IMG/VR virus record: IMGVR_UViG_3300036772_000425
Span: 1-10,923 of that record
DNA from: a virus
DNA: 10,923 nt
Reading direction: 5' to 3' (one strand)
The notes below the pieces were generated by a model. That model was given only the letters and a program-made list of their open reading frames with translations. It did no database searches and was not told the DNA's origin. Each line of letters begins with the position of its first letter. Positions within the stretch are counted from its first letter, which is position 1. Below are positions 1-10,923 of the stretch, piece by piece. The position numbers and the translations under genes were made by a program.

Positions 1-771
1 CTCCACCTCTGTCAACGAAGGGCTGATCCGCTGCATCGCCGACTGTTTCAGCGTCTTGCTGTACTGGTGCATGTTGACCAGATCATGTGCGTTCGTGGAG
101 CTGGGATCCTTGATGGTCCTGTCGACCAGGTCATGCATGAACTTCGTGTTGATCTGAGTGTTCGTTGTGACATGCTTCAAACGCTTGAAGTACTCATTGA
201 GAACACGTGTGCTGGCCTTCGGTTCTGTCAGCCCCTGTTTTTTGGGCCGGGTCGCGGCGGACGATGCGGGCACGTAGAAGGTGGATCCGTGGGCAAGGTC
301 AGGCAGCGTCATAGACCGGAAGATCCAGTGAGGCTTGATGTGCGGCGGCAGCAGCGGGATGAACCGTTGAGCTGCCTTGTAGTGGCTGACATGCTGGTCA
401 TGTTCTTCCTCGAGCGAAGCATGCACGATCGATCCGGAGACCATCTCATGGATCTTCTTGTCGATGTGGCCGTCATGGAAGTGGACCGCGGCGAAACTGT
501 TGGACGCGAAATCATCCTCAGTGACAACCTTGTCGATGTTGTCCAGGATCAACGAACCGTTCTGCTCTCCGGTGTTCTTCAAGGAATTGGCGCGGGCAGC
601 GACCTCGCTGACCGTGCCGCCAACATCCGCGAGCTTGGGTCGATGCCATCTGAACTCGACGAACCTGGGCACGCGGGTCACAGACCACTGGATGAAACCT
701 GAGTCTATCTCGTCAGAGCCTTTCGCAAGGACGTTGGAGGGTACACCCCCGGTCTCATTGACACTTTCATC
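1..771 (-). CDS. Hypothetical protein, partial (C-terminus lies beyond window start). I translated 257 codons by hand from ATG at 771..769: MESVMETGGVPSNVLAKGSDEIDSGFIQWSVTRVPRFVEFRWHRPK...VHFHDGHIDKKIHEMVSGSIVHASLEEEHDQHVSHY...TEVE. Contains a His-rich cluster (HFHDGH, EEHDQH) that may bind metal.
   Basis: Minus-strand codons beginning at positions congruent to 1 mod 3 contain no stop from 870 down to position 1; the nearest upstream stop is 871-873. The first ATG in that frame is the reverse complement of 769-771. Codon usage (ATC, AAG, GAC, TTC, CAG, AAC) matches the other minus-strand genes. The opposing plus ORF 67..702 has antisense-shadow composition. The ORF track omits this frame because there is no in-window stop. 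Confidence 0.6.
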
Positions 772-863
772 CGGGACAAAGAAGTTGTAGAAGTACTTTG
801 ACTCGAAGTTCTTGACCTCCGGGATGTCGATCAGGTAGACCGGCCGCGACGGTTGTGAAACGC
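772..863 (-). promoter_or_regulatory. 92-nt intergenic region between the 1392-aa gene and the downstream partial gene; possible module boundary, promoter or attenuator. Contains CAAAGTAC about 29 nt upstream of ATG and a weak ACCG/CGGT hairpin at 841-856
   Basis: Largest non-coding gap in the window. Shares CAAAGTAY with 8513-8548. No convincing intrinsic terminator: short stem and no U-tract. Confidence 0.2.
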
Positions 864-3800
864 TCACAGATCATCCTCCAAGGTTTCGATTGTGATGAAG
901 TACTTGTCGGTGATCAGATCACCCTGGCTCTTGTCTCGATCTCGGTACCTGAACGCATGCACATCATCGGGCGGTTGTGACTTGATGAAACCCCGGCCGA
1001 GGTTCGGATTGACTGTCAAGGCAAGCAGCGACAGGCCGGCAGAAAGCGCTCGAAGCGTCGGAGCATCGTGTTCGGATGAAACGATGTCGCCCGTCTCCAG
1101 CAGCTGCCTCAACGCGTTCCTACCGTGCGGTGTTGCGTTCGTTTTCTTGGCATTGACCAGGAAGTCCCTCGGATCCACGATCACATTGAACACCCTGTCA
1201 AAGCACTTGGGTGACAGCACCTTGTGGTTCAAAGCCTTGACCTGCGAGAAAGATGTCATGGTACGTGACAGCGATGAAATTGCATGCAACGATGTCATGA
1301 TCAGATCGGTGTGTCGGGCGCTCAAGGATGACAGCGTCAATTTCGCTGGGTCGATCGCGAGCAGCTGATCAGCGCTCTTCTGGGAGGGCACACTGGGCTG
1401 CACCGATCTGAATTCAGAGGCCGGCGATACGTAACCGGCAACACCGGCAGGGTTGCTCATCACGGGATCTATGATGCCGCGCGAACCACGTGCGTTGGTG
1501 ACACCAGTTGAACGTCGGGTTGATGTTCCTGAGAACAGGACGCCTCCCGTGGGGGAATCGGCATTGACAGTACGAGGAACCTTCAGGAGATCTCCCATGT
1601 GTGAGATCGCATGATCCAGAAGCAACTTGACCTCCGCCGATTCCAGCTGCGGGGGCGGAGGTGTGAAATGGTACTCGTGCTCGGCTACGTTGATCCCGGT
1701 CATCAGCTTGATGTACGCCTCCAACAACTGGCTGACGACCTGGTTGTGCAGGATCTCTGTTCGTTGCTGCGGGCTCAGGAAATCGTACCCTCCTCCCTCG
1801 AACGCTCCTCTGGCTCCTTTGATCCCATCTGACCCTGCGATGGCCGTCGATGCATACTCCACTCCGGATGCGATGCTGTTCGAAGTGCCCTTGTTCGGAT
1901 CCTGCGTAAAATTCTGCGTCGGGATCGCAGAGACGATGTCATGAAGGGCTGGGTTCTCAGGCAGGGGCAGCCAGTGTGCTGTGGTGAAACGGGTGGGGAA
2001 CCTGGACAGTTCGAACAGGTACTTCACCGGACGGTAGACAATGTCCGGATGCTGGATGTCCAGCTTGTACACGCAAATCCTGACGATGTCAGAACGCTTG
2101 TCCTCGAACGAAGCCTTCTTCTGATCCTTCAGGGTGACCTTCTGCTTGAGGTTCCGGGTGAAACCTTGGGGGATTCCGACAGTCAGGATCCTCTTGTTCC
2201 TGCCATGGATCCCCGCGAACTCGCCTGTGCCGAAGTACCCCATGATCGCCTTGAGCATCTCCGGAGGTACCTCAGATTCATCCAAAATGGCTGTCTCCCG
2301 ATTGGTGGGCCGACCGGTGGCATTGTACGATCGCCTTTGGGTTCCAACTCCCTTCTGATCCTTGTTTCGTGCATGGGCCGTGAGGAGGCTCTCTACAGTG
2401 GATGCCAACAGCATGATCTGCTGTTCGCTGAATAGCATCTTGATCAGCTCTGCATTGTTGTTCAAGGTGCTCGAGATCTGGTGCAGCTTGTCGAGAGAGT
2501 CCTTGCTGTTGAGGTAGTTGCTGATCCCGAGCAAGGATCCGCTCAATTTCCTCATGGCATTGAGCGTTGTCAGCAGCAGCTGGCGGGTCAAGTATCCCTC
2601 TGCAGACAATCGTTGGATGAGCTCGTTGAATGAAGTGAGATGATTGCTACTGTTACGTGAGACCACGTAGGTTGTCTGTCCGGTAGAAAAGGTGGTCAAC
2701 CCCTTGTGCACCCCGACCAGGTCTTGGTTGCTGTACCTGCTGATGATCGATATCGCAAGGTCGAAAGCGACCATGGCAACGACCGTGTCCTGGGCTCCCC
2801 TGTACCGGGTCAGGTTCCCGCTCAGTGCCTGGGATCGGTTCCGGAACCAGTTCAGAACATCGCTCATGAACCCCTCGACCAGGGTGGTCATCCGGGTACC
2901 AGACTTCAACGCATGCTTGATGCTGTCGTTGGTCAATGAGGCGGTGTTCAGCAGCGGATCTAGCGGATCGTTCACCAACTGCACCACTGTCGGTGACTCC
3001 GGCACCGTGGACTCAAGCAGGTTGACAAGCTGATCGATCAGCTTGTCGACGATGGGGGTGTTGTCTGACCCCGGTGAGGCTGAAAAGAACGGCACGTTGT
3101 TCTTGTAGGTCCGTGCCAACCGGTTCATGGTGTACAGGAAGAGGATGGTTTTGACCTGTGGGTGGGTCCTGGCGTGAGCGTACACAGCCCCCAACCTATC
3201 GTTGATTGCGATGGTGCGGGCCTCACCGTTCCGTGGATTGATCAGTTGATCAACGAGCTGGTGCACCGTGTCGGTGCTGTTTTCCAGGAAAGAAACGTCC
3301 AACATCAGCGGAATGTCCAATCCGAACATGTGCATCACTGTCTGGGACGGGATCGCCATCAGGTTCAACGAATCACAGATCACAGAGAGGTTATCAGCCT
3401 GGTTCTGCAACCTCTTGCTCAGGTTGTCGATGGCCTGGGTGTCGAACTTGGAACCATCGGTGTTCAAAATCCTGTCGAAGTAGAAGTCGGACCCGGGCGT
3501 CAGGGTTCCGTTGTCACCCTCCACGAACTTTGACTCAAACGTAAGGATCCCAGCGTTCTCCACCCGTTCCTGGCCGACGCTCGCCACGGAACGCAGGTTC
3601 GCTGATGGAAAATCTGAGATGTTGTTGACCAGGCTGCCCATCACGGAATTGAACAGGCCCATGTTACGTGTTGGGGTGACCTGGTACCCGTAGAACGATG
3701 ACAACCTTCGCTGCAAAGCAGGGTCAGCAAGGCCGTTCGAGTAGCGGAATTCCCGGGTCAGCAGGTGGGCGAGGGCAGCGATCTTGGTCTCTTCATTCTT

Positions 3801-5042
3801 GAAGAAAACATCCTGGTAGATCTTGCCGAATGCTGTGGACAGGGTCTGGACGGCCTTTGCGGAACCTGCGGGTTGCAGTTTCACGAGGTCCTCCAGCGAC
3901 ATGACCTGTGGCAGGTCTGTGATGAAATCGAACCTTTTGGTGGGCGGGTTGAGGATGGTGGATGGGTTCTGATCCTTCTTCTGTTGGGTTGGATCGATGT
4001 CAAGCAACCGGTACGAATGGTGCTGGAGGATGTGCCTGAGATCGGTCACGGTCTGCAGCCAGATCTTTGTCGATGAGAAGAATTTTCGGGCCAGATTCTC
4101 CTTGTACCCGAGGTCCGTCAAACAATCCACAAAGTTGTATTTCGGCCGTGGAGCGCGCTGGACGAGCAATGATAGGATGTGAGGTGCAAGTTCGGGCGCC
4201 ATGTAGGGCCGTTGTTGGGCAAAGTTCTGCAGGAAGAAGGTGGCAACCTCTGTCGGATCGACCTCGTAGAGGTCGTGCCGCAGGTCGAGCTGGCTCTTCT
4301 GGCTCTCAACGAGCCGCACCAGGTTCAACATGAAGCCCGCGTCGTCCTTCAGGCTGAAGATTGCACGTGTGAAATTGTCCTCACGTAGACGCAGGTGCTG
4401 CTCCACCTGGGCGTACCTGGTTCGAACGGACTCAATGCTCCGATGGATGTTGAATGCATTCAGGTTCCGCATGTGGAACTGAGCATCAATGTACCTGCCT
4501 GCATCGGTGATGAAATGCGACAGGCCTGCCGCCTCAAATGCTTCGATGTAGGCTGGGACGGTGCTGCTGGTGGCCCTATCGTAGAGGGGCAGGAACTCCG
4601 TCATCATCACAATCTCAGGACGTTCGTGAGTGATCCCAGTCAGGTTCGTGTACACCTGGAACTTCGTTGCAGTGGACGCTAGGTTCTGAAGCAACCTTGG
4701 GTCCAAGGTTTTCCCAGAATCACGGGCAAGCGGGTAGGTGGGGATGATGTTGCCGCCTGCAGACCGTTGCGGGATGATCATCCCTGATTCGCTGGTCAAT
4801 CCGTCAGCGATCTGTTCCAACGTGGGTTCAGCGGTCACGTTCAAACCGCCGCTGTCGGTGGAGATGACCGGATGGGGCAGCTGCACCTGGTGCGCTGTGG
4901 GCACCGACGTGGACAGGGTGTGGGTGGTCTGCGATGTTTGCTGCTTTGCGGCAGCCTGCAGGTTATCATCCGGTGACAACGGTTGAGTATTGACAGCTAC
5001 GTTCGCGAATGAACCGTTGTTGGACCGCAGGGTCTTGATCAT
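864..5042 (-). CDS. Hypothetical giant protein (1392 aa), N/Q/S/T/D-rich, with no recognisable catalytic motif; candidate large virion, internal or tail-associated protein
   Basis: Uninterrupted 4.2-kb ORF. Start ATG at 5042..5040 overlaps the TGA stop of the upstream 820-aa gene as ATGA. Strong C/G-ending codon bias consistent with neighbouring genes. Weak GGTGGAAG purine-rich stretch 4-12 nt upstream of the start. All plus-strand ORFs inside it are short and R/D/V/L-rich. Confidence 0.85.
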   Translation of the reverse strand: MIKTLRSNNGSFANVAVNTQPLSPDDNLQAAAKQQTSQTTHTLSTSVPTAHQVQLPHPVISTDSGGLNVTAEPTLEQIADGLTSESGMIIPQRSAGGNIIPTYPLARDSGKTLDPRLLQNLASTATKFQVYTNLTGITHERPEIVMMTEFLPLYDRATSSTVPAYIEAFEAAGLSHFITDAGRYIDAQFHMRNLNAFNIHRSIESVRTRYAQVEQHLRLREDNFTRAIFSLKDDAGFMLNLVRLVESQKSQLDLRHDLYEVDPTEVATFFLQNFAQQRPYMAPELAPHILSLLVQRAPRPKYNFVDCLTDLGYKENLARKFFSSTKIWLQTVTDLRHILQHHSYRLLDIDPTQQKKDQNPSTILNPPTKRFDFITDLPQVMSLEDLVKLQPAGSAKAVQTLSTAFGKIYQDVFFKNEETKIAALAHLLTREFRYSNGLADPALQRRLSSFYGYQVTPTRNMGLFNSVMGSLVNNISDFPSANLRSVASVGQERVENAGILTFESKFVEGDNGTLTPGSDFYFDRILNTDGSKFDTQAIDNLSKRLQNQADNLSVICDSLNLMAIPSQTVMHMFGLDIPLMLDVSFLENSTDTVHQLVDQLINPRNGEARTIAINDRLGAVYAHARTHPQVKTILFLYTMNRLARTYKNNVPFFSASPGSDNTPIVDKLIDQLVNLLESTVPESPTVVQLVNDPLDPLLNTASLTNDSIKHALKSGTRMTTLVEGFMSDVLNWFRNRSQALSGNLTRYRGAQDTVVAMVAFDLAISIISRYSNQDLVGVHKGLTTFSTGQTTYVVSRNSSNHLTSFNELIQRLSAEGYLTRQLLLTTLNAMRKLSGSLLGISNYLNSKDSLDKLHQISSTLNNNAELIKMLFSEQQIMLLASTVESLLTAHARNKDQKGVGTQRRSYNATGRPTNRETAILDESEVPPEMLKAIMGYFGTGEFAGIHGRNKRILTVGIPQGFTRNLKQKVTLKDQKKASFEDKRSDIVRICVYKLDIQHPDIVYRPVKYLFELSRFPTRFTTAHWLPLPENPALHDIVSAIPTQNFTQDPNKGTSNSIASGVEYASTAIAGSDGIKGARGAFEGGGYDFLSPQQRTEILHNQVVSQLLEAYIKLMTGINVAEHEYHFTPPPPQLESAEVKLLLDHAISHMGDLLKVPRTVNADSPTGGVLFSGTSTRRSTGVTNARGSRGIIDPVMSNPAGVAGYVSPASEFRSVQPSVPSQKSADQLLAIDPAKLTLSSLSARHTDLIMTSLHAISSLSRTMTSFSQVKALNHKVLSPKCFDRVFNVIVDPRDFLVNAKKTNATPHGRNALRQLLETGDIVSSEHDAPTLRALSAGLSLLALTVNPNLGRGFIKSQPPDDVHAFRYRDRDKSQGDLITDKYFITIETLEDDL

Positions 5043-7501
5043 GGAGCTTCCACCACTAGGGTATTGGTGACGGTGGGGGAGCCCACCTTGTAATCGCTGT
5101 AGATCGGAACGATGACGAACTGCAGCGCTCCCACGTCAGACGAAGTGATCTTGTGAATGTACTGGCAACTACCGTTGGTGAATTCCGAATGAGCCTTGCC
5201 GATCGCTGTCCTGATCCCATGAACCTGCTTCATGATCAGGAAATGATCGACCTGGGTGATGTCACCCGTCAAACGCCAGGTCACGAGGTTCAACTGCCTG
5301 TCGAAGTTGGCGGCGACGGCCTCGGTGATCGTTGCCGTCTCTTGGTCGAATGAGACCTCCGTGGAGGTGATGGATCCGATCACTCCGTGGGCCATCGGAT
5401 CCTTGGCATACCGCAGCACGGCACCCTTTGAGGTGACAATGACCCCTTTGTTCAAGGTGAGTGGATGCAGGAATTTTGCAGGTGAGAAGGTATATACCTT
5501 CTTGGTGATTGGGTCGGTTGCAGTTTTGACGAATGAATCAAAGAGCGTTTCGGGTTGGCGCAGCAGCGGATAGATCACGTACCTGTACCGATGACCGTAC
5601 TGGAGTGCTGCGATGGACTGGTTCTTCCGCAGTGATTCATCATCGAAGTTGGGGACAGTGATCGTCCCAAAGTTCTCAAGGAGACCCGTGTTCAGGTCGA
5701 TCCGATGGATTTGGTGCGCGATCAACCTGGTCAGCTGGTCACGTTGGGCCTCAATGTCACCGGTGAAGTACGAACTGAGACCTTGATTGTCAAGCATCTG
5801 CTTGAAAGCGTCCAGATCAGTTCCGACAACCGTTGTCGTGACGGTGAAAGAAACGTTCGGAGTGGTGTCAGTCACCACCTTCAGATCCGTGATCTCTGTG
5901 TCCACCTCTCCGGGCGATGGGTTGACGAACTCGATGGTCGCTGCGCCGGCTGGGTTCACGTCACCGTCGATGTAGATGAGTTCGACGGTGTACTGGTACA
6001 CGTGGTCGTACGTAACATCAGTGTCGATGAGGACGAGCAGGTCAGCCTCCCTGGTGGCATCATCTATGAAACCAACATCATCTCCCACCGTCTCAGGATC
6101 CGACTCAAAGATTGATAGGTCAACCCTCAGGAATCTGACAGCAACCACGTTGGTTGGGAACTGCCTCACCTCGAGCTGGATGCCCGTGTCGACCTGTAGG
6201 GCGGTCAAGGAGATGGATTTCACGGGCGTGTAATGCGCAGGTTTCACCACGACGTTGGTGTACTCGAACCCCTGCAGCGATTGTGAACCTTTCGGTATCA
6301 CCCGGTACAGAGCCGGAGACGAGGTGGGTCGATCGACCTGCACCAGCAACGATTGATCCATGGTCGTCAACGGGTACGTACCGATCAACGTGTAGTCATC
6401 CACCTCTGGTGTAGAGATCCAGAATGATTTCTTGTACACGTCGACGGTCGTTGCGCCGGGATCCAGCTGTTTCACCTCCAGGTTCACCTTCGAGGAAACC
6501 TCGGATGCCGACAACTTGACAGTCGGCGGTACCTTCGGAGTCCTGTACACCTGGACATGCTGAGTGATGTCCAACAGTTTCGTGGCAGAATCGATCGCCA
6601 TTCCGCTGTCTGGATCCAGCAGCTCAAAGACAACCTGAACCTGCGTGAGGGGAGCGCCCTCGAGGTTCAGTTTCCCGACCGGGATTCCCAACGGCACCAC
6701 GATCTCGATCTGATCGTCAGGGGTCGACGTCAGGATCTGGACCAGCTCTGTGTCCACCAGGTTGTCGGTGGTCGTGGGGGGAGCAAGAGACGACGGCGGG
6801 AAGAGATGGTAGTTCAGGAGGCGCGGCGCAGGGTCTGTCTTCGTCTCTTGCGCGCGTTGTGTGTTCGACAGGCCACCGTGTGTGGCAGCTTCAGGGGAAG
6901 CGCGGGGGGTCAGGTTCAGTATCTGGCTGGGATCTTGGCCCTGTTGGACGATCATCCTGTGCATCAGGGTCGTGGGCTCCTCGATCAGAGAGGCTGAGAG
7001 CAGGCCTTGGATGTCGGGAACAATGACAGTGTGCAGGATAGGTTGAGGGTCGTTCGCCTGCTTGGTCTGCAGGGCGGAGCTCAACGTCAGCTTGGGTCGA
7101 TTCAGGCTTGGAATCTCTGAGACAGGCGCCTGAGCCAGCAACTGCGGAACGATCTGATTGTTGATCTTGGAGGAGATGTCGCTGAGCTTGGACGCAAGCA
7201 CGTAAACTGTCTGCTGATCGACTGTTGTCTTCGCATCGGTCACCATGGTGAGCACATTGTCCACGATGGACTGTGCATCTACGTAGCCCTTGGTGCTCTG
7301 CTGCAGCACGTTCTTCCGAGCAACTGTCCTTGCCACGATCTTTGTGTTGACCTTCAGGGCACGGTACGAGACCACCTGCTTCTGAGAAACCGAGTACGTG
7401 AACCGGAAGTGCAGGTTGCCAAGCTCGTCGATCAGCCTGAGATGCGCAAAATTGTCCTCCACGACGAGGATCTGGGCCTTGTTCTGGTACCTGAAGTACA
7501 T
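5039..7501 (-). CDS. Hypothetical protein (820 aa). N-terminal roughly 190-aa region, then a Pro/Thr-rich linker (…PAPRLLNYHLFPPSSLAPPTTTDN…), then a long V/T/D-rich, probably beta-rich C-terminal region; candidate fibre, tail-tube or baseplate-type structural protein
   Basis: 2.46-kb ORF. Start ATG at 7501 lies only 3 nt after the TAA stop (7505-7507) of the upstream gene, on the minus strand TAAAGCATG. Its TGA stop is embedded in the ATGA overlap with the 1392-aa gene. Same codon bias as neighbours. Confidence 0.85.
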   Translation of the reverse strand: MYFRYQNKAQILVVEDNFAHLRLIDELGNLHFRFTYSVSQKQVVSYRALKVNTKIVARTVARKNVLQQSTKGYVDAQSIVDNVLTMVTDAKTTVDQQTVYVLASKLSDISSKINNQIVPQLLAQAPVSEIPSLNRPKLTLSSALQTKQANDPQPILHTVIVPDIQGLLSASLIEEPTTLMHRMIVQQGQDPSQILNLTPRASPEAATHGGLSNTQRAQETKTDPAPRLLNYHLFPPSSLAPPTTTDNLVDTELVQILTSTPDDQIEIVVPLGIPVGKLNLEGAPLTQVQVVFELLDPDSGMAIDSATKLLDITQHVQVYRTPKVPPTVKLSASEVSSKVNLEVKQLDPGATTVDVYKKSFWISTPEVDDYTLIGTYPLTTMDQSLLVQVDRPTSSPALYRVIPKGSQSLQGFEYTNVVVKPAHYTPVKSISLTALQVDTGIQLEVRQFPTNVVAVRFLRVDLSIFESDPETVGDDVGFIDDATREADLLVLIDTDVTYDHVYQYTVELIYIDGDVNPAGAATIEFVNPSPGEVDTEITDLKVVTDTTPNVSFTVTTTVVGTDLDAFKQMLDNQGLSSYFTGDIEAQRDQLTRLIAHQIHRIDLNTGLLENFGTITVPNFDDESLRKNQSIAALQYGHRYRYVIYPLLRQPETLFDSFVKTATDPITKKVYTFSPAKFLHPLTLNKGVIVTSKGAVLRYAKDPMAHGVIGSITSTEVSFDQETATITEAVAANFDRQLNLVTWRLTGDITQVDHFLIMKQVHGIRTAIGKAHSEFTNGSCQYIHKITSSDVGALQFVIVPIYSDYKVGSPTVTNTLVVEAP

Positions 7502-7504
7502 GCT

Positions 7505-8512
7505 TTACTCGAACACGAGGGTGAACAGGTGCAGGAAGGTGTCAGTGCCCTTTTCGTCGACCTCAACCTTGCCGACAAAGAAGATGTCAGCGATTGGCGC
7601 TGCATCGTTCCCAGTGTGGAAATTCCCGAAATGGACAACGTCCAGCTTCTTCAGGCCGTTGGCCGTCCGTTCGAAGAACTGGCCGACCAGCTGGTTGTCA
7701 CGTGAACTTGGATCAAAGTTGATCACCCGTTCGTACCCCATCATGGAGTAGTGAGCCAGTTCCGCCATCGTCTGTTTGTACGTCAACCCGAACACCTGCG
7801 TTCGACCCCACGGGAAGTACCAGCCCAGGAAGAGCTTGCTGAACTCGCGATGGTCGCTTCGATCCAGTGAAGTATCGTTCGTCTTGTTGATCGGGGGCAG
7901 GAACTTGAAGTTGGGGCGCGTGCTGAACCGAGGATCGCTGAAGATGCTATCGAGCGCGCTGACATGGGTGGTCTGCTGCTCGGCTCCGGCAATGGGACGG
8001 TTGTCATGGATGGCGAACGTCACATCGTTGGGCCCAAGGGCGAAACCATCATCATCGAAGATGGTGTCACGCGTTGCGATCAGCATCATCCGCTTGAAGT
8101 TCTTCAACGAAGAGCTCAGCAGGAGCTCCGCACCGTCCTCGAAGGCCGCTCCTTGAAGCGTGATGACATCCTGAGAAAACCCGACAAAGGTTGAACCGGA
8201 TACAGCATTGAACGAGTAGTCCAATATCCTGCCACCCGCGGTGGGTACGTCGTCGGAGCTGCGGAAAGGTTGCAGGTTCCCATCATCGTCAGCCCTGAAG
8301 ACGATGTCGTCCTGCGGCAGCTGGCACGATTCCAGGTACAGACGTTTCGTCGCGTCCTCGCTGCCGGTGTCCGCGTCCGCCCTGTAGTACGTGGCCCCGT
8401 CCGTGAAGGAAACGTACTTGATATCGACACCGCCCTCCGACAGCTGCCGGCGGCCCTCGGTGGTGATCACGGTGTCAATGATTCGGGATTTGCTGTCCAG
8501 GATCCCTGACAT
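7505..8512 (-). CDS. Hypothetical acidic protein (335 aa; D+E far exceed K+R); candidate capsid or virion component
   Basis: 1-kb ORF with the same codon bias. Preceded by the 36-nt AT-rich intergenic spacer 8513-8548 and followed by a 3-nt spacer before the next gene. Confidence 0.8.
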   Translation of the reverse strand: MSGILDSKSRIIDTVITTEGRRQLSEGGVDIKYVSFTDGATYYRADADTGSEDATKRLYLESCQLPQDDIVFRADDDGNLQPFRSSDDVPTAGGRILDYSFNAVSGSTFVGFSQDVITLQGAAFEDGAELLLSSSLKNFKRMMLIATRDTIFDDDGFALGPNDVTFAIHDNRPIAGAEQQTTHVSALDSIFSDPRFSTRPNFKFLPPINKTNDTSLDRSDHREFSKLFLGWYFPWGRTQVFGLTYKQTMAELAHYSMMGYERVINFDPSSRDNQLVGQFFERTANGLKKLDVVHFGNFHTGNDAAPIADIFFVGKVEVDEKGTDTFLHLFTLVFE

Positions 8513-8548
8513 GTCTCAAATATACTTTGGGCTCGATAACGCTGCCGT
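8513..8548 (-). promoter_or_regulatory. Candidate internal promoter, or leaderless-transcript start, for the 335-aa gene: AT-rich island …GTTATCGAGCCCAAAGTATATTTGAGAC immediately before ATG
   Basis: This is the only AT-rich stretch in a GC-rich block. TATATT ends 7 nt before the A of ATG, the geometry of a -10 element driving a leaderless mRNA. Alternatively TTAT at -27..-24 fits archaeal-type TATA spacing. The CAAAGTAY motif is shared with the other intergenic gap. Confidence 0.3.
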
Positions 8549-8992
8549 TCAGCGTCGTACAAGCCTGACACGCTGCGGTTGGTGCCGTTGCGATGAGTAC
8601 GTTTTCTTGAACCGTGTCAGATCACGCTGCGGAAGTTCAGGTTCTGGTTCCTCTGGAGGGGCTGGGAACACATCCCATTCACCAGATCCCACACCCTGGT
8701 TGGTGGTGGGATTCTGGTCTGACACGGCCGACGTCCGATCCTGGCTCTCGCTCAGGATCTCGTGAGCGCCCCAGGTGTTCATGAGCCCACCCCAACTGCC
8801 GGACTCCAACGTGCCGATGTCAACTCCGGAGTTGGCACCGAATGTATTCATCAGCCCACCCCAACTGCCGGTCTGCCAGCTGGAGACAGTGTAATCCAGT
8901 GCCAACATCGAGTTGCTGTTGGCGGACGGGTACCAAGCACCCGTGATGAACGTGTTGGTTTCAGAGGTTGTCAGTTCAACGATGGATGCCAT
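8549..8992 (-). CDS. Hypothetical small protein (147 aa from the internal Met, MASIVELTT…; the ORF track gives 165 aa from 9046). Contains a tandem 23-aa repeat carrying GSWGGLMNT[F/W]GA, an acidic Pro/Glu segment, and a basic C-terminal tail (RFKKTYSSQRHQPQRVRLVRR)
   Basis: ORF 8549..9046. Starting at the first Met would overlap the upstream 535-aa gene by 50 nt. The in-frame ATG at 8992..8990 lies 4 nt after that gene's TGA (8997-8999), minus strand TGAGATCATG, which matches the tight-junction pattern elsewhere in the block. The 9046 start remains possible. Confidence 0.6.
   Translation of the reverse strand: MASIVELTTSETNTFITGAWYPSANSNSMLALDYTVSSWQTGSWGGLMNTFGANSGVDIGTLESGSWGGLMNTWGAHEILSESQDRTSAVSDQNPTTNQGVGSGEWDVFPAPPEEPEPELPQRDLTRFKKTYSSQRHQPQRVRLVRR
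8771..8872. repeat. Imperfect direct repeat of about 32 nt with a 69-nt period (…gt[g/a]ttcat[g/c]agcccaccccaactgccgg…) encoding the duplicated GSWGGLMNT[F/W]GA peptide
   Basis: agcccac occurs at 8784-8790 and 8853-8859 with the identical downstream run cccaactgccgg. The offset is 69 nt, i.e. 23 codons. Confidence 0.5.
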
Positions 8993-8996
8993 GATC

Positions 8997-10604
8997 TCAG
9001 AGTCCGTTGATTCCGCCCCAAGGCATGTACATGCCGCCCAAGGCATGGAACCATTGCATGTTGGTGTCGACAGTCGACCACGAAGGTTGCCCTGTCACCC
9101 TGCCGAACCGGGCGATGGGAACTCGACCCATCCTTCGAGGTTCGATCGGGAACACTGCATTGTCCGAGTAGTTCCGGTTGTTGTCCAGCGTACCTGCGTA
9201 CAGGTCGGAGGTGGTGAGCTCGGTGGCGTTCAGGAAGGGTGAATCTCCGGCAGCCACATCGAACCTGATGCTACTGGAGTTTGCCGGTGAGGCAGAAACG
9301 TATGACAGGCTTGACATCACGCACGACAGCGGGCCGTTCCTGCTGTCCAAGGAGTACGCCATCCCGCTGACACCCTCTACCTTGGCCGCGCCGCAGCGCC
9401 AATCTACACCAGCAAGAAACCCACGTTGGGTCTGACCGACCACGAAAAGACTTTGGGCACTGGAAGCACCCGGCACGGGAGTCTCACCCTCAGGTTGTCC
9501 GAACATCGCAAAGACATGGCTCGCGCTCGATTGGTTACGCAGCATCACGAGGCAGGTTCCGGTGACATCGTCAGCCCAAGCATAGAAACGGTAGCTGATC
9601 GCAGTACCGGCCTGAGGACCACCGGTTGAAGATCCGGTGGTGGCGACAGCGAGAGCATCGATGCCGGGCATCGATCCCACGTATGCGGCGGCGTTTGCAT
9701 ACGAAAAATTGAACCACTGCGGACCGTGGAGGTGCAGCGCGGCCGGACTGCCGAACTGTCCCACCGGGAAATCACCGTTCGATCCACCCATTCCAGGGAT
9801 CGCGGTGAAAGCTGGGTTACCGGTGCTCTCAGAACCACCGAAGCTGATCGTGGCGGTGGACTCCAAGGCCAACCTGACATTCCAGTTCAGTGATGAAGGG
9901 CTCTTCATCAGGAGCCGCGGGTAGGTGCTGCCGCCCTGTCCCTGGTACTGGGTCGTATCACCCGTGGCTCGAAGTGAATTGAAGGTTGGCCATGCAACTC
10001 CCGTTCGAACGGGTCCCCGACCGAAAGATCCCGTGCCGGTGTCAGAACCGGGCGGCGGCAACCAGATCGATGCGACCACGTAGCTGCCTGTCTCGTTGAG
10101 GGTGGGTGAAGTCGACCTGTAATCGATCTCGATGGAATTCTGGGACAACCAGCTGGACACGTCAGTGATCCGAAAGATCCCAGAGTTCGCCAGTGGGTTC
10201 TGGGTGCTCTTGATCACGGCCCAACTTCCGAGCAGTGGGTTCTGGCTGGGCCATGAACCGGACGATTGGGGCCAGTTTGTCGGGAACGCTGCGCTCATCA
10301 GGTTGACCATGTCCTGCGAGAACCGCAGGAGCGTATGACCGCCCGACCCAGAAATGAAGCAGCACGGTGTGCTCTCTGGTATGATGGAGGAACTGACGGT
10401 GCTGAAGGCACTGCCGTTCCAAGAATCATAATTGATGGTTTGGGATGGGTTCAGGTTCGGCAGCAGGCTTCCCGCGGAGCTCTGTGTCGTGTAACCCACA
10501 ACACCCTTCAGGAAGACAGCCAACGCCCACATCGTATCGTACGAACCGGTGGCAAGCTGTCGCGAGCCACCCAGGACCAGATCACGGCATGCGTGGATCG
10601 TCAT
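8997..10604 (-). CDS. Hypothetical G/S/T/A/N-rich, Trp-containing protein with very few charged residues (535 aa from MTIHACRDL…; 562 aa if started at 10685); candidate capsid, fibre or surface-exposed structural protein
   Basis: 1.69-kb ORF. The internal ATG at 10604..10602 forms an ATGA overlap with the TGA stop (10603..10601) of the upstream partial gene, the same architecture as the 5039-5042 junction. AGGGA lies 4 nt upstream of this ATG. The track start at 10685 would overlap the upstream gene by 84 nt. Confidence 0.75.
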   Translation of the reverse strand: MTIHACRDLVLGGSRQLATGSYDTMWALAVFLKGVVGYTTQSSAGSLLPNLNPSQTINYDSWNGSAFSTVSSSIIPESTPCCFISGSGGHTLLRFSQDMVNLMSAAFPTNWPQSSGSWPSQNPLLGSWAVIKSTQNPLANSGIFRITDVSSWLSQNSIEIDYRSTSPTLNETGSYVVASIWLPPPGSDTGTGSFGRGPVRTGVAWPTFNSLRATGDTTQYQGQGGSTYPRLLMKSPSSLNWNVRLALESTATISFGGSESTGNPAFTAIPGMGGSNGDFPVGQFGSPAALHLHGPQWFNFSYANAAAYVGSMPGIDALAVATTGSSTGGPQAGTAISYRFYAWADDVTGTCLVMLRNQSSASHVFAMFGQPEGETPVPGASSAQSLFVVGQTQRGFLAGVDWRCGAAKVEGVSGMAYSLDSRNGPLSCVMSSLSYVSASPANSSSIRFDVAAGDSPFLNATELTTSDLYAGTLDNNRNYSDNAVFPIEPRRMGRVPIARFGRVTGQPSWSTVDTNMQWFHALGGMYMPWGGINGL

Positions 10605-10923
10605 ACCATCCCTGCAAAGATGTCCCGGTTGGGGACGATAGAGTGATCCCAAGGCAGCACGATACCGTTGCCCGCATGGATCCAACGGCCGCCAGCGGCA
10701 TCATCGAAGCGAGCGAACCGTGAGAACCCGCTCATGTACTTCACTGAACGGATCCGAGCCCTGACCAGGCTGAACTGCCCGGTCGCAGAAACCTGCCCGT
10801 TGATGGTGGGCAACGAGAGGAACGGATCGGGAAGCAGGACCTGGTTCGTGATCTTGTTGTACAGGATGGGCCACCTGCTGTTCTGAACGCTGTCAGTGGC
10901 ACTGTTCGGCCACATGGATGAAT
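10601..10923 (-). CDS. Hypothetical protein, partial (N-terminus lies beyond window end). Visible C-terminal part: …NSRWPILYNKITNQVLLPDPFLSLPTINGQVSATGQFSLVRARIRSVKYMSGFSRFARFDDAAGGRWIHAGNGIVLPWDHSIVPNRDIFAGMV
   Basis: Open minus-strand frame from the window edge to the TGA at 10603..10601. Codon usage like neighbours. The reported Met at 10915 is only 2-3 codons from the window edge, so the true start is probably outside the window. Confidence 0.55.
   Translation of the reverse strand, partial: SSMWPNSATDSVQNSRWPILYNKITNQVLLPDPFLSLPTINGQVSATGQFSLVRARIRSVKYMSGFSRFARFDDAAGGRWIHAGNGIVLPWDHSIVPNRDIFAGMV

Follow-up and report, generated by a model that had tools for sequence, protein, structure and literature searches.

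The stretch of DNA analyzed here, the window, comprises the 10,923 nucleotides (nt) at positions 1 to 10,923 of the IMG/VR virus record IMGVR_UViG_3300036772_000425, and forms one of the ends of a Logan contig of 168.7 kb. It is read entirely from the minus strand and contains two very large open reading frames (ORFs) on that strand, of which the 820-amino-acid (aa) frame (7501..5039) lies upstream and the 1392-aa frame (5042..864) downstream. A first-pass annotation made from the letters alone had described them as two adjacent giant ORFans joined by an ATGA overlap. Direct reading confirms the adjacency and the overlap, and the arrangement recurs in most relatives. Within a block of four genes, designated C1 to C4, the two frames take the second and third places; the genes and junctions are as follows:

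7505..8512, minus strand: C1, 335 aa, the first gene of the block
5039..7501, minus strand: C2, the 820-aa ORF, predicted to be multidomain and beta-rich with FN3-like sandwiches
864..5042, minus strand: C3, the 1392-aa ORF, found between C2 and C4 in every locus
1..867, minus strand: C4, with its N-terminal 289 codons in the window (open frame 1..870) and the rest beyond the edge
5039..5042, minus strand: ATGA overlap of C2 and C3, read directly, with the C3 ATG at 5042..5040 and the C2 TGA at 5041..5039
864..879, minus strand: C3/C4 junction, with GGAGGA at 879..874 and the C4 GTG at 867..865 over the C3 TGA at 866..864

C3 and C4 overlap by GTGA (867..864), with the GGAGGA placed 6 nt ahead of the GTG start. 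This start is supported by the translated N-terminus, MSVSQPS, against a C4 family consensus of MSISQPSK, and in the parent contig (L001) C4 is called as a gene of 658 aa. A spacer of 3 nt separates the end of C1 from the ATG of C2. Where junctions can be read in relatives, most show these 4-nt overlaps again or fall a few nucleotides from them. For C2/C3, a spacing of -4 nt is scored in 12 loci and ATGA is visible in two more, with the remaining readable junctions at -8 to +7 nt; for C3/C4, the -4 overlap is found in 10 loci. Matches to sigma-70-type promoters and intrinsic terminators inside the C1-C4 block do not exceed shuffled expectation. All plus-strand ORFs of 60-211 aa (for example, window 67..702, plus strand) run antisense to conserved genes of the minus strand and are in all likelihood spurious, and the GC skew is positive over the whole window.

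C3 has 71 full-length homologues (1271-1446 aa, 24-53% identity) and C2 has 68 (mostly 817-860 aa, 40-68% identity), all of them metagenomic and none with a Pfam domain or a source name. A profile search with C2 retrieves 907 clusters at 50% identity with E<=1e-3, of which 522 have E<=1e-30, and nearly all of the 150 clusters listed are full length. The contigs of the relatives measure 310-370 kb, with a maximum of 369 kb, and are held as viral in IMG/VR. Lengths are tightly conserved in both families, and C2 is slow-evolving. Because of these 68 and 71 full-length homologues and their conserved lengths, C2 and C3 are certainly genes; they are also old and widespread, and unannotated rather than orphan. 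The term ORFan therefore holds for the lack of annotation but not in the sense of a singleton or a lineage-restricted gene. That the two frames arose as an assembly artifact or as fused or chimeric ORFs, a possibility raised in the first-pass annotation, has negligible probability and nothing in its favor: the full-length pair is present in at least 34 independent loci, its homologues are full length and collinear with the same gene order across dozens of independent Logan, ENA, JGI, and NCBI assemblies, and an identical 820-aa protein is encoded on a separate 340-kb JGI contig. The C2 profile run over one genome per GTDB species detected no prophage copy. A 199-kb contig of the phage clade (L042; GCA_020049755.1, JAHZTO010000048.1) is deposited inside a bacterial metagenome-assembled genome; as none of the GTDB species representatives carries the C2 gene, it appears to be a contaminant from binning and not a prophage.

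ORFs were called and clustered in 34 loci, and the order C1 (335 aa), C2 (~825 aa), C3 (~1383 aa), C4 (~652 aa) is invariant in 34/34. After C4, and after occasional homing endonuclease genes, there always follow two further families, C0a (238 aa) and C0b (~415 aa), and then C12 (~835 aa) where the locus reaches far enough. Farther downstream are genes for an endonuclease, RuvC, primase, SbcCD, TerL (phrog_2), and portal (phrog_213); on one contig, C3 is linked without a break to the portal gene and to that of a T4 gp21-type protease. The portal on a 369-kb contig bearing C1-C4 is of the T4 gp20 type and matches 2572 T4-type phage records, and a syntenic relative encodes a gp23-type capsid protein that matches 2581 phage records, with its best matches in LR756508, immuto, Mel-JY01, XacN1, and RM378. 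Upstream of C1, most genomes carry genes for a GroEL-like protein, ClpP, a helicase, a sigma-region-4 protein, and PhoH-PIN. Because of the gp20-type portal on a contig with the same block and the gp21-type protease and gp23-type capsid protein of syntenic relatives, the virus is a jumbo member of the T4 superfamily (contractile-tail) and not a podovirus, and its clade consists of uncultivated jumbo phages with genomes of ~320-370 kb. The podovirus-like module invoked in the first-pass annotation does not fit a context in which TerL (phrog_2), a phrog_213/gp20-type portal, a gp21-type protease, a gp23-type capsid, and a gp6-like wedge are all of T4 type; internal-core genes of a podovirus would be expected after the tail tubular genes of a structural module.

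Among the families nearby, only C0a and C0b have relatives in culture, namely Flavobacterium phage vB_FspM_immuto (immuto), Microcystis phage Mel-JY01, and Rhodothermus phage RM378. In immuto and Mel-JY01 a gp25-like gene is followed by the gene for a gp6-like wedge protein (phrog_6/219, E 1e-18 to 1e-22), by X370, which encodes 370 aa, and by a giant ORF of 1265-1336 aa, with C0a and C0b immediately after it. Past these lie several fiber-sized paralogues sharing the C-terminal domain of C0b; the immuto genes at this position are annotated as tail fiber and tail spike, and Mel-JY01 has their paralogues. The same order from gp25-like gene to C0b is found in the uncultured huge phage LR756508 (484 kb). 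By capsid and portal protein, immuto, Mel-JY01, and LR756508 are the nearest cultured or deposited relatives, and they share C0a, C0b, and the downstream primase/SbcC arrangement with the window's clade. They lack C1-C4, for which tblastn is negative and hidden Markov models (HMMs) are negative on LR756508, and they carry a giant ORF of 1265-1400 aa that is unrelated to C3 or C2 (hhalign <=0.5%). Among 80 further gp6-like IMG/VR loci, the giant ORF is present in 45/80 and C1-C4 in 0/80. A literature search on Mel-JY01, immuto, and the sample and contig turned up nothing informative.

The three most divergent C2/C3 lineages (L031, L033, and L034) connect the two arrangements. In each of them, the run C1-C4-C0a-C0b-C12 is preceded, at a distance of 2-4 genes and on its own strand, by genes of the baseplate cluster. 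All three have the giant ORF (E 1e-9 to 1e-17), L031 and L033 also have X370, and only L031, whose locus begins inside it, has the gp6-like gene (E 2e-33). Read from this gene order, C1-C4 is a discrete four-gene insert in the baseplate/tail-fiber cluster, present in the clade and absent from its nearest known relatives. A corresponding scan for gp6-like genes in main-clade contigs was saturated by other phages. Two other relationships were considered and rejected. C3 is not the giant ORF that immuto, Mel-JY01, and LR756508 have at the analogous position, as hhalign against that family (immuto_161-type, >2000 members) gives a probability of 0.5% for C3 and 0.1% for C2, and both genes coexist in L031, L033, and L034. 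Nor do C1-C4 replace the gp25/gp6 wedge, which is ruled out by the genes of the baseplate cluster that coexist with C1-C4 in the same three lineages. The idea that C1, C2, or C4 is a very divergent gp25, gp6, or X370 has no support either, with hhalign probabilities of <=1.4% for their profiles against the three families.

C1 offers a further link between the block and the fiber genes. Its N-terminal ~90 residues align with the N-terminus of C0a over 89 columns (hhalign probability 80.6%, E 1.3e-5), and hmmsearch also matched the N-termini of Mel-JY01, RM378, and immuto proteins; these alignments argue with moderate strength for a relationship between the C1 N-terminus and the N-terminal domain of the C0a fiber module. 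The C0b profile also matches C12. At the other end of these proteins, a C-terminal domain of ~100 residues (FNYSxNP...ITTVGLYDxxxxLLAVAKLSKPxxK...VKLDY) is common to several 300-950-aa proteins per genome, at L039-L041 and L160 and in the C0b and C12 genes of the clade; besides the clade, it occurs in Mel-JY01 (five copies), immuto, RM378, and LR756508. It has no Pfam, PHROGs, or PDB match and is probably a common attachment or trimerization module of the fiber set. The C0a N-terminal and C0b C-terminal motifs may resemble the tail-collar fiber domain of P2 gpH.

Searches of the sequence libraries bear out the earlier statement that neither large protein carries a recognizable motif, as Pfam, PHROGs, and NCBIfam return no match for C2, C3, or their neighbors in the window. 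C1-C4 as a whole have no Pfam or PHROGs match, and so none to the baseplate wedge families gp6 (Baseplate_J), gp25, and gp7, and tblastn of C2 and C3 against 50,697 phage records found nothing. Profiles of C1, C2, C3, C4, C0a, C0b, C5, and C6 (the last two being families upstream of C1) gave nothing significant against PDB sequences; the FN3-like matches of the C4 sequence to titin and KIAA1496 are weak and below significance. Family-library matches among the window proteins and their neighbors are limited to homing endonucleases, and in relatives they extend to ClpP, a GroEL-like protein, a helicase, PhoH-PIN, and sigma region 4. Obvious transmembrane segments are absent from C2 and C3, as had been noted at first reading: no 19-residue window in either protein is hydrophobic enough for a membrane helix.

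For C2, structure prediction gives a domain layout. An AlphaFold2 (AF2) model built from a 39-sequence alignment has a predicted local distance difference test score (pLDDT) of 80.1 and a predicted template modeling score (pTM) of 0.72, and divides the protein as follows:

Residues ~1-250: N-terminal mixed alpha/beta region (AF2 model)
Residues 253-320: small beta domain (AF2 model)
Residues 327-419, window 6245..6523, minus strand: first FN3-like seven-strand sandwich, by strand pattern in the model
Residues 431-525, window 5927..6211, minus strand: second FN3-like sandwich, on the same basis as the first
Residues 533-703: mixed region (AF2 model)
Residues 704-817, window 5051..5392, minus strand: C-terminal beta-sandwich, pLDDT mostly 82-92

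The predicted structure contains at least one FN3-type seven-strand beta-sandwich domain. Single FN3 domains superpose on it over 86-96 residues at 2.2-2.4 A, and as the sandwich covered by each match is not reported, the FN3 assignment of each individual sandwich rests on strand topology. The C-terminal third is the more conserved part of the protein, with conservation of 0.56-0.74 per 20-residue window in the C-terminal sandwich. On the best reading of the model, C2 is a beta-rich structural protein of several domains, in which two FN3-like sandwiches stand in tandem and a third beta-sandwich forms the C-terminus. The Pro/Thr-rich stretch at about residues 220-250, which had been taken for a linker, is moderately conserved and for the most part confidently modeled (pLDDT 57-86 in 10-residue blocks over residues 201-250). 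Siphovirus central tail fibers, such as the T1 tail-tip fiber (9l9p_S) and lambda J (9e7m), have FN3 modules that match C2 at the domain level only, as 145-154 of its 820 residues align at 6-8% identity and cellular FN3 domains score equally.

C3 exceeds the 1200-residue limit of the structure prediction, and the modeled fragment starts at residue 116. A conserved N-terminal 20-mer is followed by three regions:

Residues 21-115, window 4698..4982, minus strand: poorly conserved, probably disordered, containing ARDSGKT
Residues 116-1240, window 1323..4697, minus strand: large core, predicted to be mostly alpha-helical, without structural analogue
Residues 1241-1392, window 867..1322, minus strand: conserved C-terminal region, outside the modeled part

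Conservation in residues 21-115 is 0.27-0.42. The ARDSGKT in this poorly conserved segment, which other members replace by LDAGRV and similar sequences (alignment of residues 100-160), was rightly dismissed as a P-loop in the first-pass annotation. Apart from its first 22 residues (protein residues 116-137, pLDDT <50), the model, with a pTM of 0.74, has a compact multi-helix fold. This helical core of ~1,100 residues is confidently predicted and has no analogue in the PDB or BFVD; matches to tape measure proteins in BFVD are insignificant (E >3, template modeling score 0.05). C3 as a tape measure protein, which would be extended and helical and encoded between tail chaperone and hub genes, was rejected on these insignificant matches, the compact fold, and a different gene context. 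The C-terminal region carries the invariant or near-invariant motifs FDRVFNVxVDPxDF, FRYRDRDKxQGDL, and KYFxTIET, with conservation of 0.53-0.75 at residues 1261-1320 and 1361-1392. The best reading of the model is that C3 is a large, compact, mostly helical protein with a fold not previously seen.

These structures, together with the virus type, bear on the proposal of a podovirus-like element in which C2 and C3, like T7 gp15/gp16, would be internal-core proteins that are ejected, or proteins of the tail tube. Sizes near those of gp15 and gp16, the helical content of C3, and two large genes that are adjacent and translationally coupled are all features that such a pair would share. However, the virus type and neighborhood differ from those of T7, the predicted folds match no core protein, and neither a lytic transglycosylase or peptidase sub-domain nor a hydrophobic, membrane-inserting segment is found in C2 or C3. 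The ejection reading is not supported because of the T4 gp20-type portal, gp21-type protease, gp23-type capsid, and baseplate/fiber neighborhood, and it is considered very improbable. A structural role in the virion, the broader part of the original suggestion, is still the best guess.

Expression of the block appears to start at C1. A promoter-like motif, GTATATTTG, is located at window 8517..8525 on the minus strand, 6 nt ahead of the C1 start codon. This AT-rich motif stands 6-13 nt ahead of the C1 start in 20/34 loci, with the variants GTATAGTTAC, TATACTTAC, and TATATTTA. TATA[AT]TTG occurs <=60 nt from the C1 start in 20/34 loci, whereas the plus strand of all 675 kb has only 31 occurrences, these 20 included. 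No such motif is found inside C1-C4; the next conserved one after that of C1 is the variant GTATAGTTAC ahead of C12. The motif is likely the start of a C1-C4 transcription unit, and its distance from the start codon, if it acts as a promoter, implies very short leaders. In L044-L079 the motif stands ahead of C12 and other genes, with related forms ahead of the primase gene and of small genes before TerL and portal. A late promoter shared between C1 and the head genes was considered and rejected: apart from C1 and C12, the genes that have the motif ahead of them are some small ones and some for replication, and not clearly those for portal or capsid, so that it gives no expression timing. The form TATATTTG also fits the Bacteroidota -7 promoter consensus, TAnnTTTG, and may hint at the host.

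The explanation that best accommodates these findings, at a little better than even confidence, makes C2 and C3 structural proteins particular to the clade, which would belong to the periphery of the baseplate or to fiber attachment. C1-C4 would be made from one message and, through overlapping stop and start codons, in fixed proportions, and their products would co-assemble into a peripheral baseplate or fiber-attachment complex. C1 may dock by the N-terminal domain that it has in common with the fiber-module protein C0a, while C2 and C4 may supply exposed FN3-type modules. C3 could act as a large scaffold that joins the periphery to the conserved wedge and helps to carry the fiber-like C0a, C0b, and C12, encoded just downstream. 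In T4, large, lineage-variable proteins encoded next to conserved wedge genes connect the wedge to the fibers. The T4 peripheral baseplate (gp7, gp8, gp9, gp10, gp11, and gp12) and the large unassigned structural proteins of T4-like cyanophages are working analogies only: large, lineage-variable proteins beside conserved wedge genes and T4-type head genes are the likeness, whereas no similarity of C1-C4 to the T4 proteins was detected in sequence, profile, or fold, and the gene order is unlike that of T4.

Several observations weigh against this assignment. Neither by sequence nor by profile do Pfam, PHROGs, NCBIfam, or PDB profiles connect C1-C4 with a known baseplate protein, and hhalign against the gp25-like, gp6-like, X370, and giant-ORF families is negative. 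FN3 domains are not exclusive to virion proteins, and no tail sheath gene was seen in the stretches reached. In the main clade, to which the window's genome belongs, the flanks of C1-C4 are non-structural, with PhoH, helicase, and sigma-like genes upstream and endonuclease, RuvC, primase, and SbcCD genes downstream; the window's subclade also has C5/C6/C20 genes directly upstream of C1.

Such flanks would suit a non-virion function, in which C1-C4 form an intracellular machine or assembly factor (a tail-assembly chaperone or scaffold, or an agent of host takeover or anti-defense) that merely lies beside the fiber genes. The position of the block between PhoH/helicase/sigma-like and endonuclease/RuvC/primase/SbcCD genes in most genomes, an unprecedented helical fold in C3 without a structural-protein analogue, and the lack of homology to known virion proteins all agree with this. 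Against it stand the baseplate-cluster genes on the same strand a few genes upstream in three divergent lineages, the C0a, C0b, and C12 genes that come next in all lineages, and the domain common to C1 and C0a. FN3-like modules are typical of exposed phage structural proteins, and the FN3-like sandwiches of C2, the weak FN3-like matches of C4, the strictly conserved lengths, and the slow evolution of C2 also speak for a structural role. A non-virion function is therefore thought unlikely, though it deserves serious weight.

FN3- and Ig-like domains are also found in capsid decoration proteins, and a head-associated role would mean a Hoc-like FN3/Ig decoration of the capsid and an internal protein that is packaged, with expression close to the head module. 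The TerL, portal, protease, and capsid genes do start ~10 kb downstream of the block, and the layout of C3, with a conserved N-terminal 20-mer ahead of a variable, disordered segment, is one that a targeting peptide could have. However, the immediate, invariant neighbors are fiber-module families and not head genes, replication and recombination genes lie between the block and the head module, and the C3 N-terminus shows no T4-type protease cleavage motif by eye, no formal test having been made. Little credence is given to this role.

Returning to the baseplate or fiber-attachment assignment, a more far-reaching form of it would have C1-C4 constitute an unseen kind of peripheral baseplate apparatus, built around a ~150-kDa helical protein of new fold and acquired once by a very large, global clade of jumbo T4-type phages; alternatively, the tail may carry C3 not as a passive scaffold but as a new-fold enzyme or a delivered effector. 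Either would be a distinctly unlikely outcome on present evidence. Large unannotated proteins beside baseplate genes are common in big myoviruses, and the category is a known one. What is new is the delimitation of two large families, one with a confidently predicted fold that lacks an analogue, and their organization as a clade-specific coupled operon with a very wide distribution. Jumbo T4-type phages are abundant in environmental metagenomes, and their host-recognition hardware is almost wholly unannotated; here, the baseplate/tail-fiber cluster is credited with ~3,200 residues per genome that had been dark coding sequence. Were virion presence confirmed, the C1-C4 proteins would serve as clade markers and as a structural target for the study of baseplate diversification. 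Were they not virion proteins, their tight linkage to fiber genes would itself need explaining.

Around the block, gene content is more variable. Upstream of C1, the window contains C5 (8997..10685, minus strand) and the C-terminus of C6 (10604..10921, minus strand), which belong to tandem paralogue pairs. The subclade carries one to three pairs of C6 (~430 aa) and C5 (450-740 aa), with a copy number that varies (L002, L003, L006-L008, L016, and L018), and other subclades have PhoH directly ahead of C1 in their place. C5 and C6 have no family or PDB match and look like a hypervariable, possibly receptor-binding, gene array. The mechanically called ORFs of 165 aa (8549..9046, minus strand) and 562 aa (8997..10685, minus strand) overlap by 50 nt, whereas the gene calls on the parent contig give 147 aa (8992..8549) and 535 aa (10604..8997) there; the true starts thus probably lie inside the mechanical frames.

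Downstream, homing endonuclease genes (GIY-YIG, DUF7487/HNH-like, and TnsA-like/NUMOD3) are inserted at points among C4, C0a, C0b, and C12 that vary by lineage, as at 13878-14771 in L001, 17888-18547 and 19594-20220 in L002, 21145-22002 in L010, and many others. Their varied insertion shows mobile-element traffic within an otherwise rigid gene order. Finally, a small gene for a histone H1-like Hc1 protein (PF07432) lies between the helicase and PhoH genes in L037 (4067-4330), L036 (1690-1920), and L038 (1037-1300), near a minus-strand gene of ~95 aa that encodes sigma-70 region 4 only.

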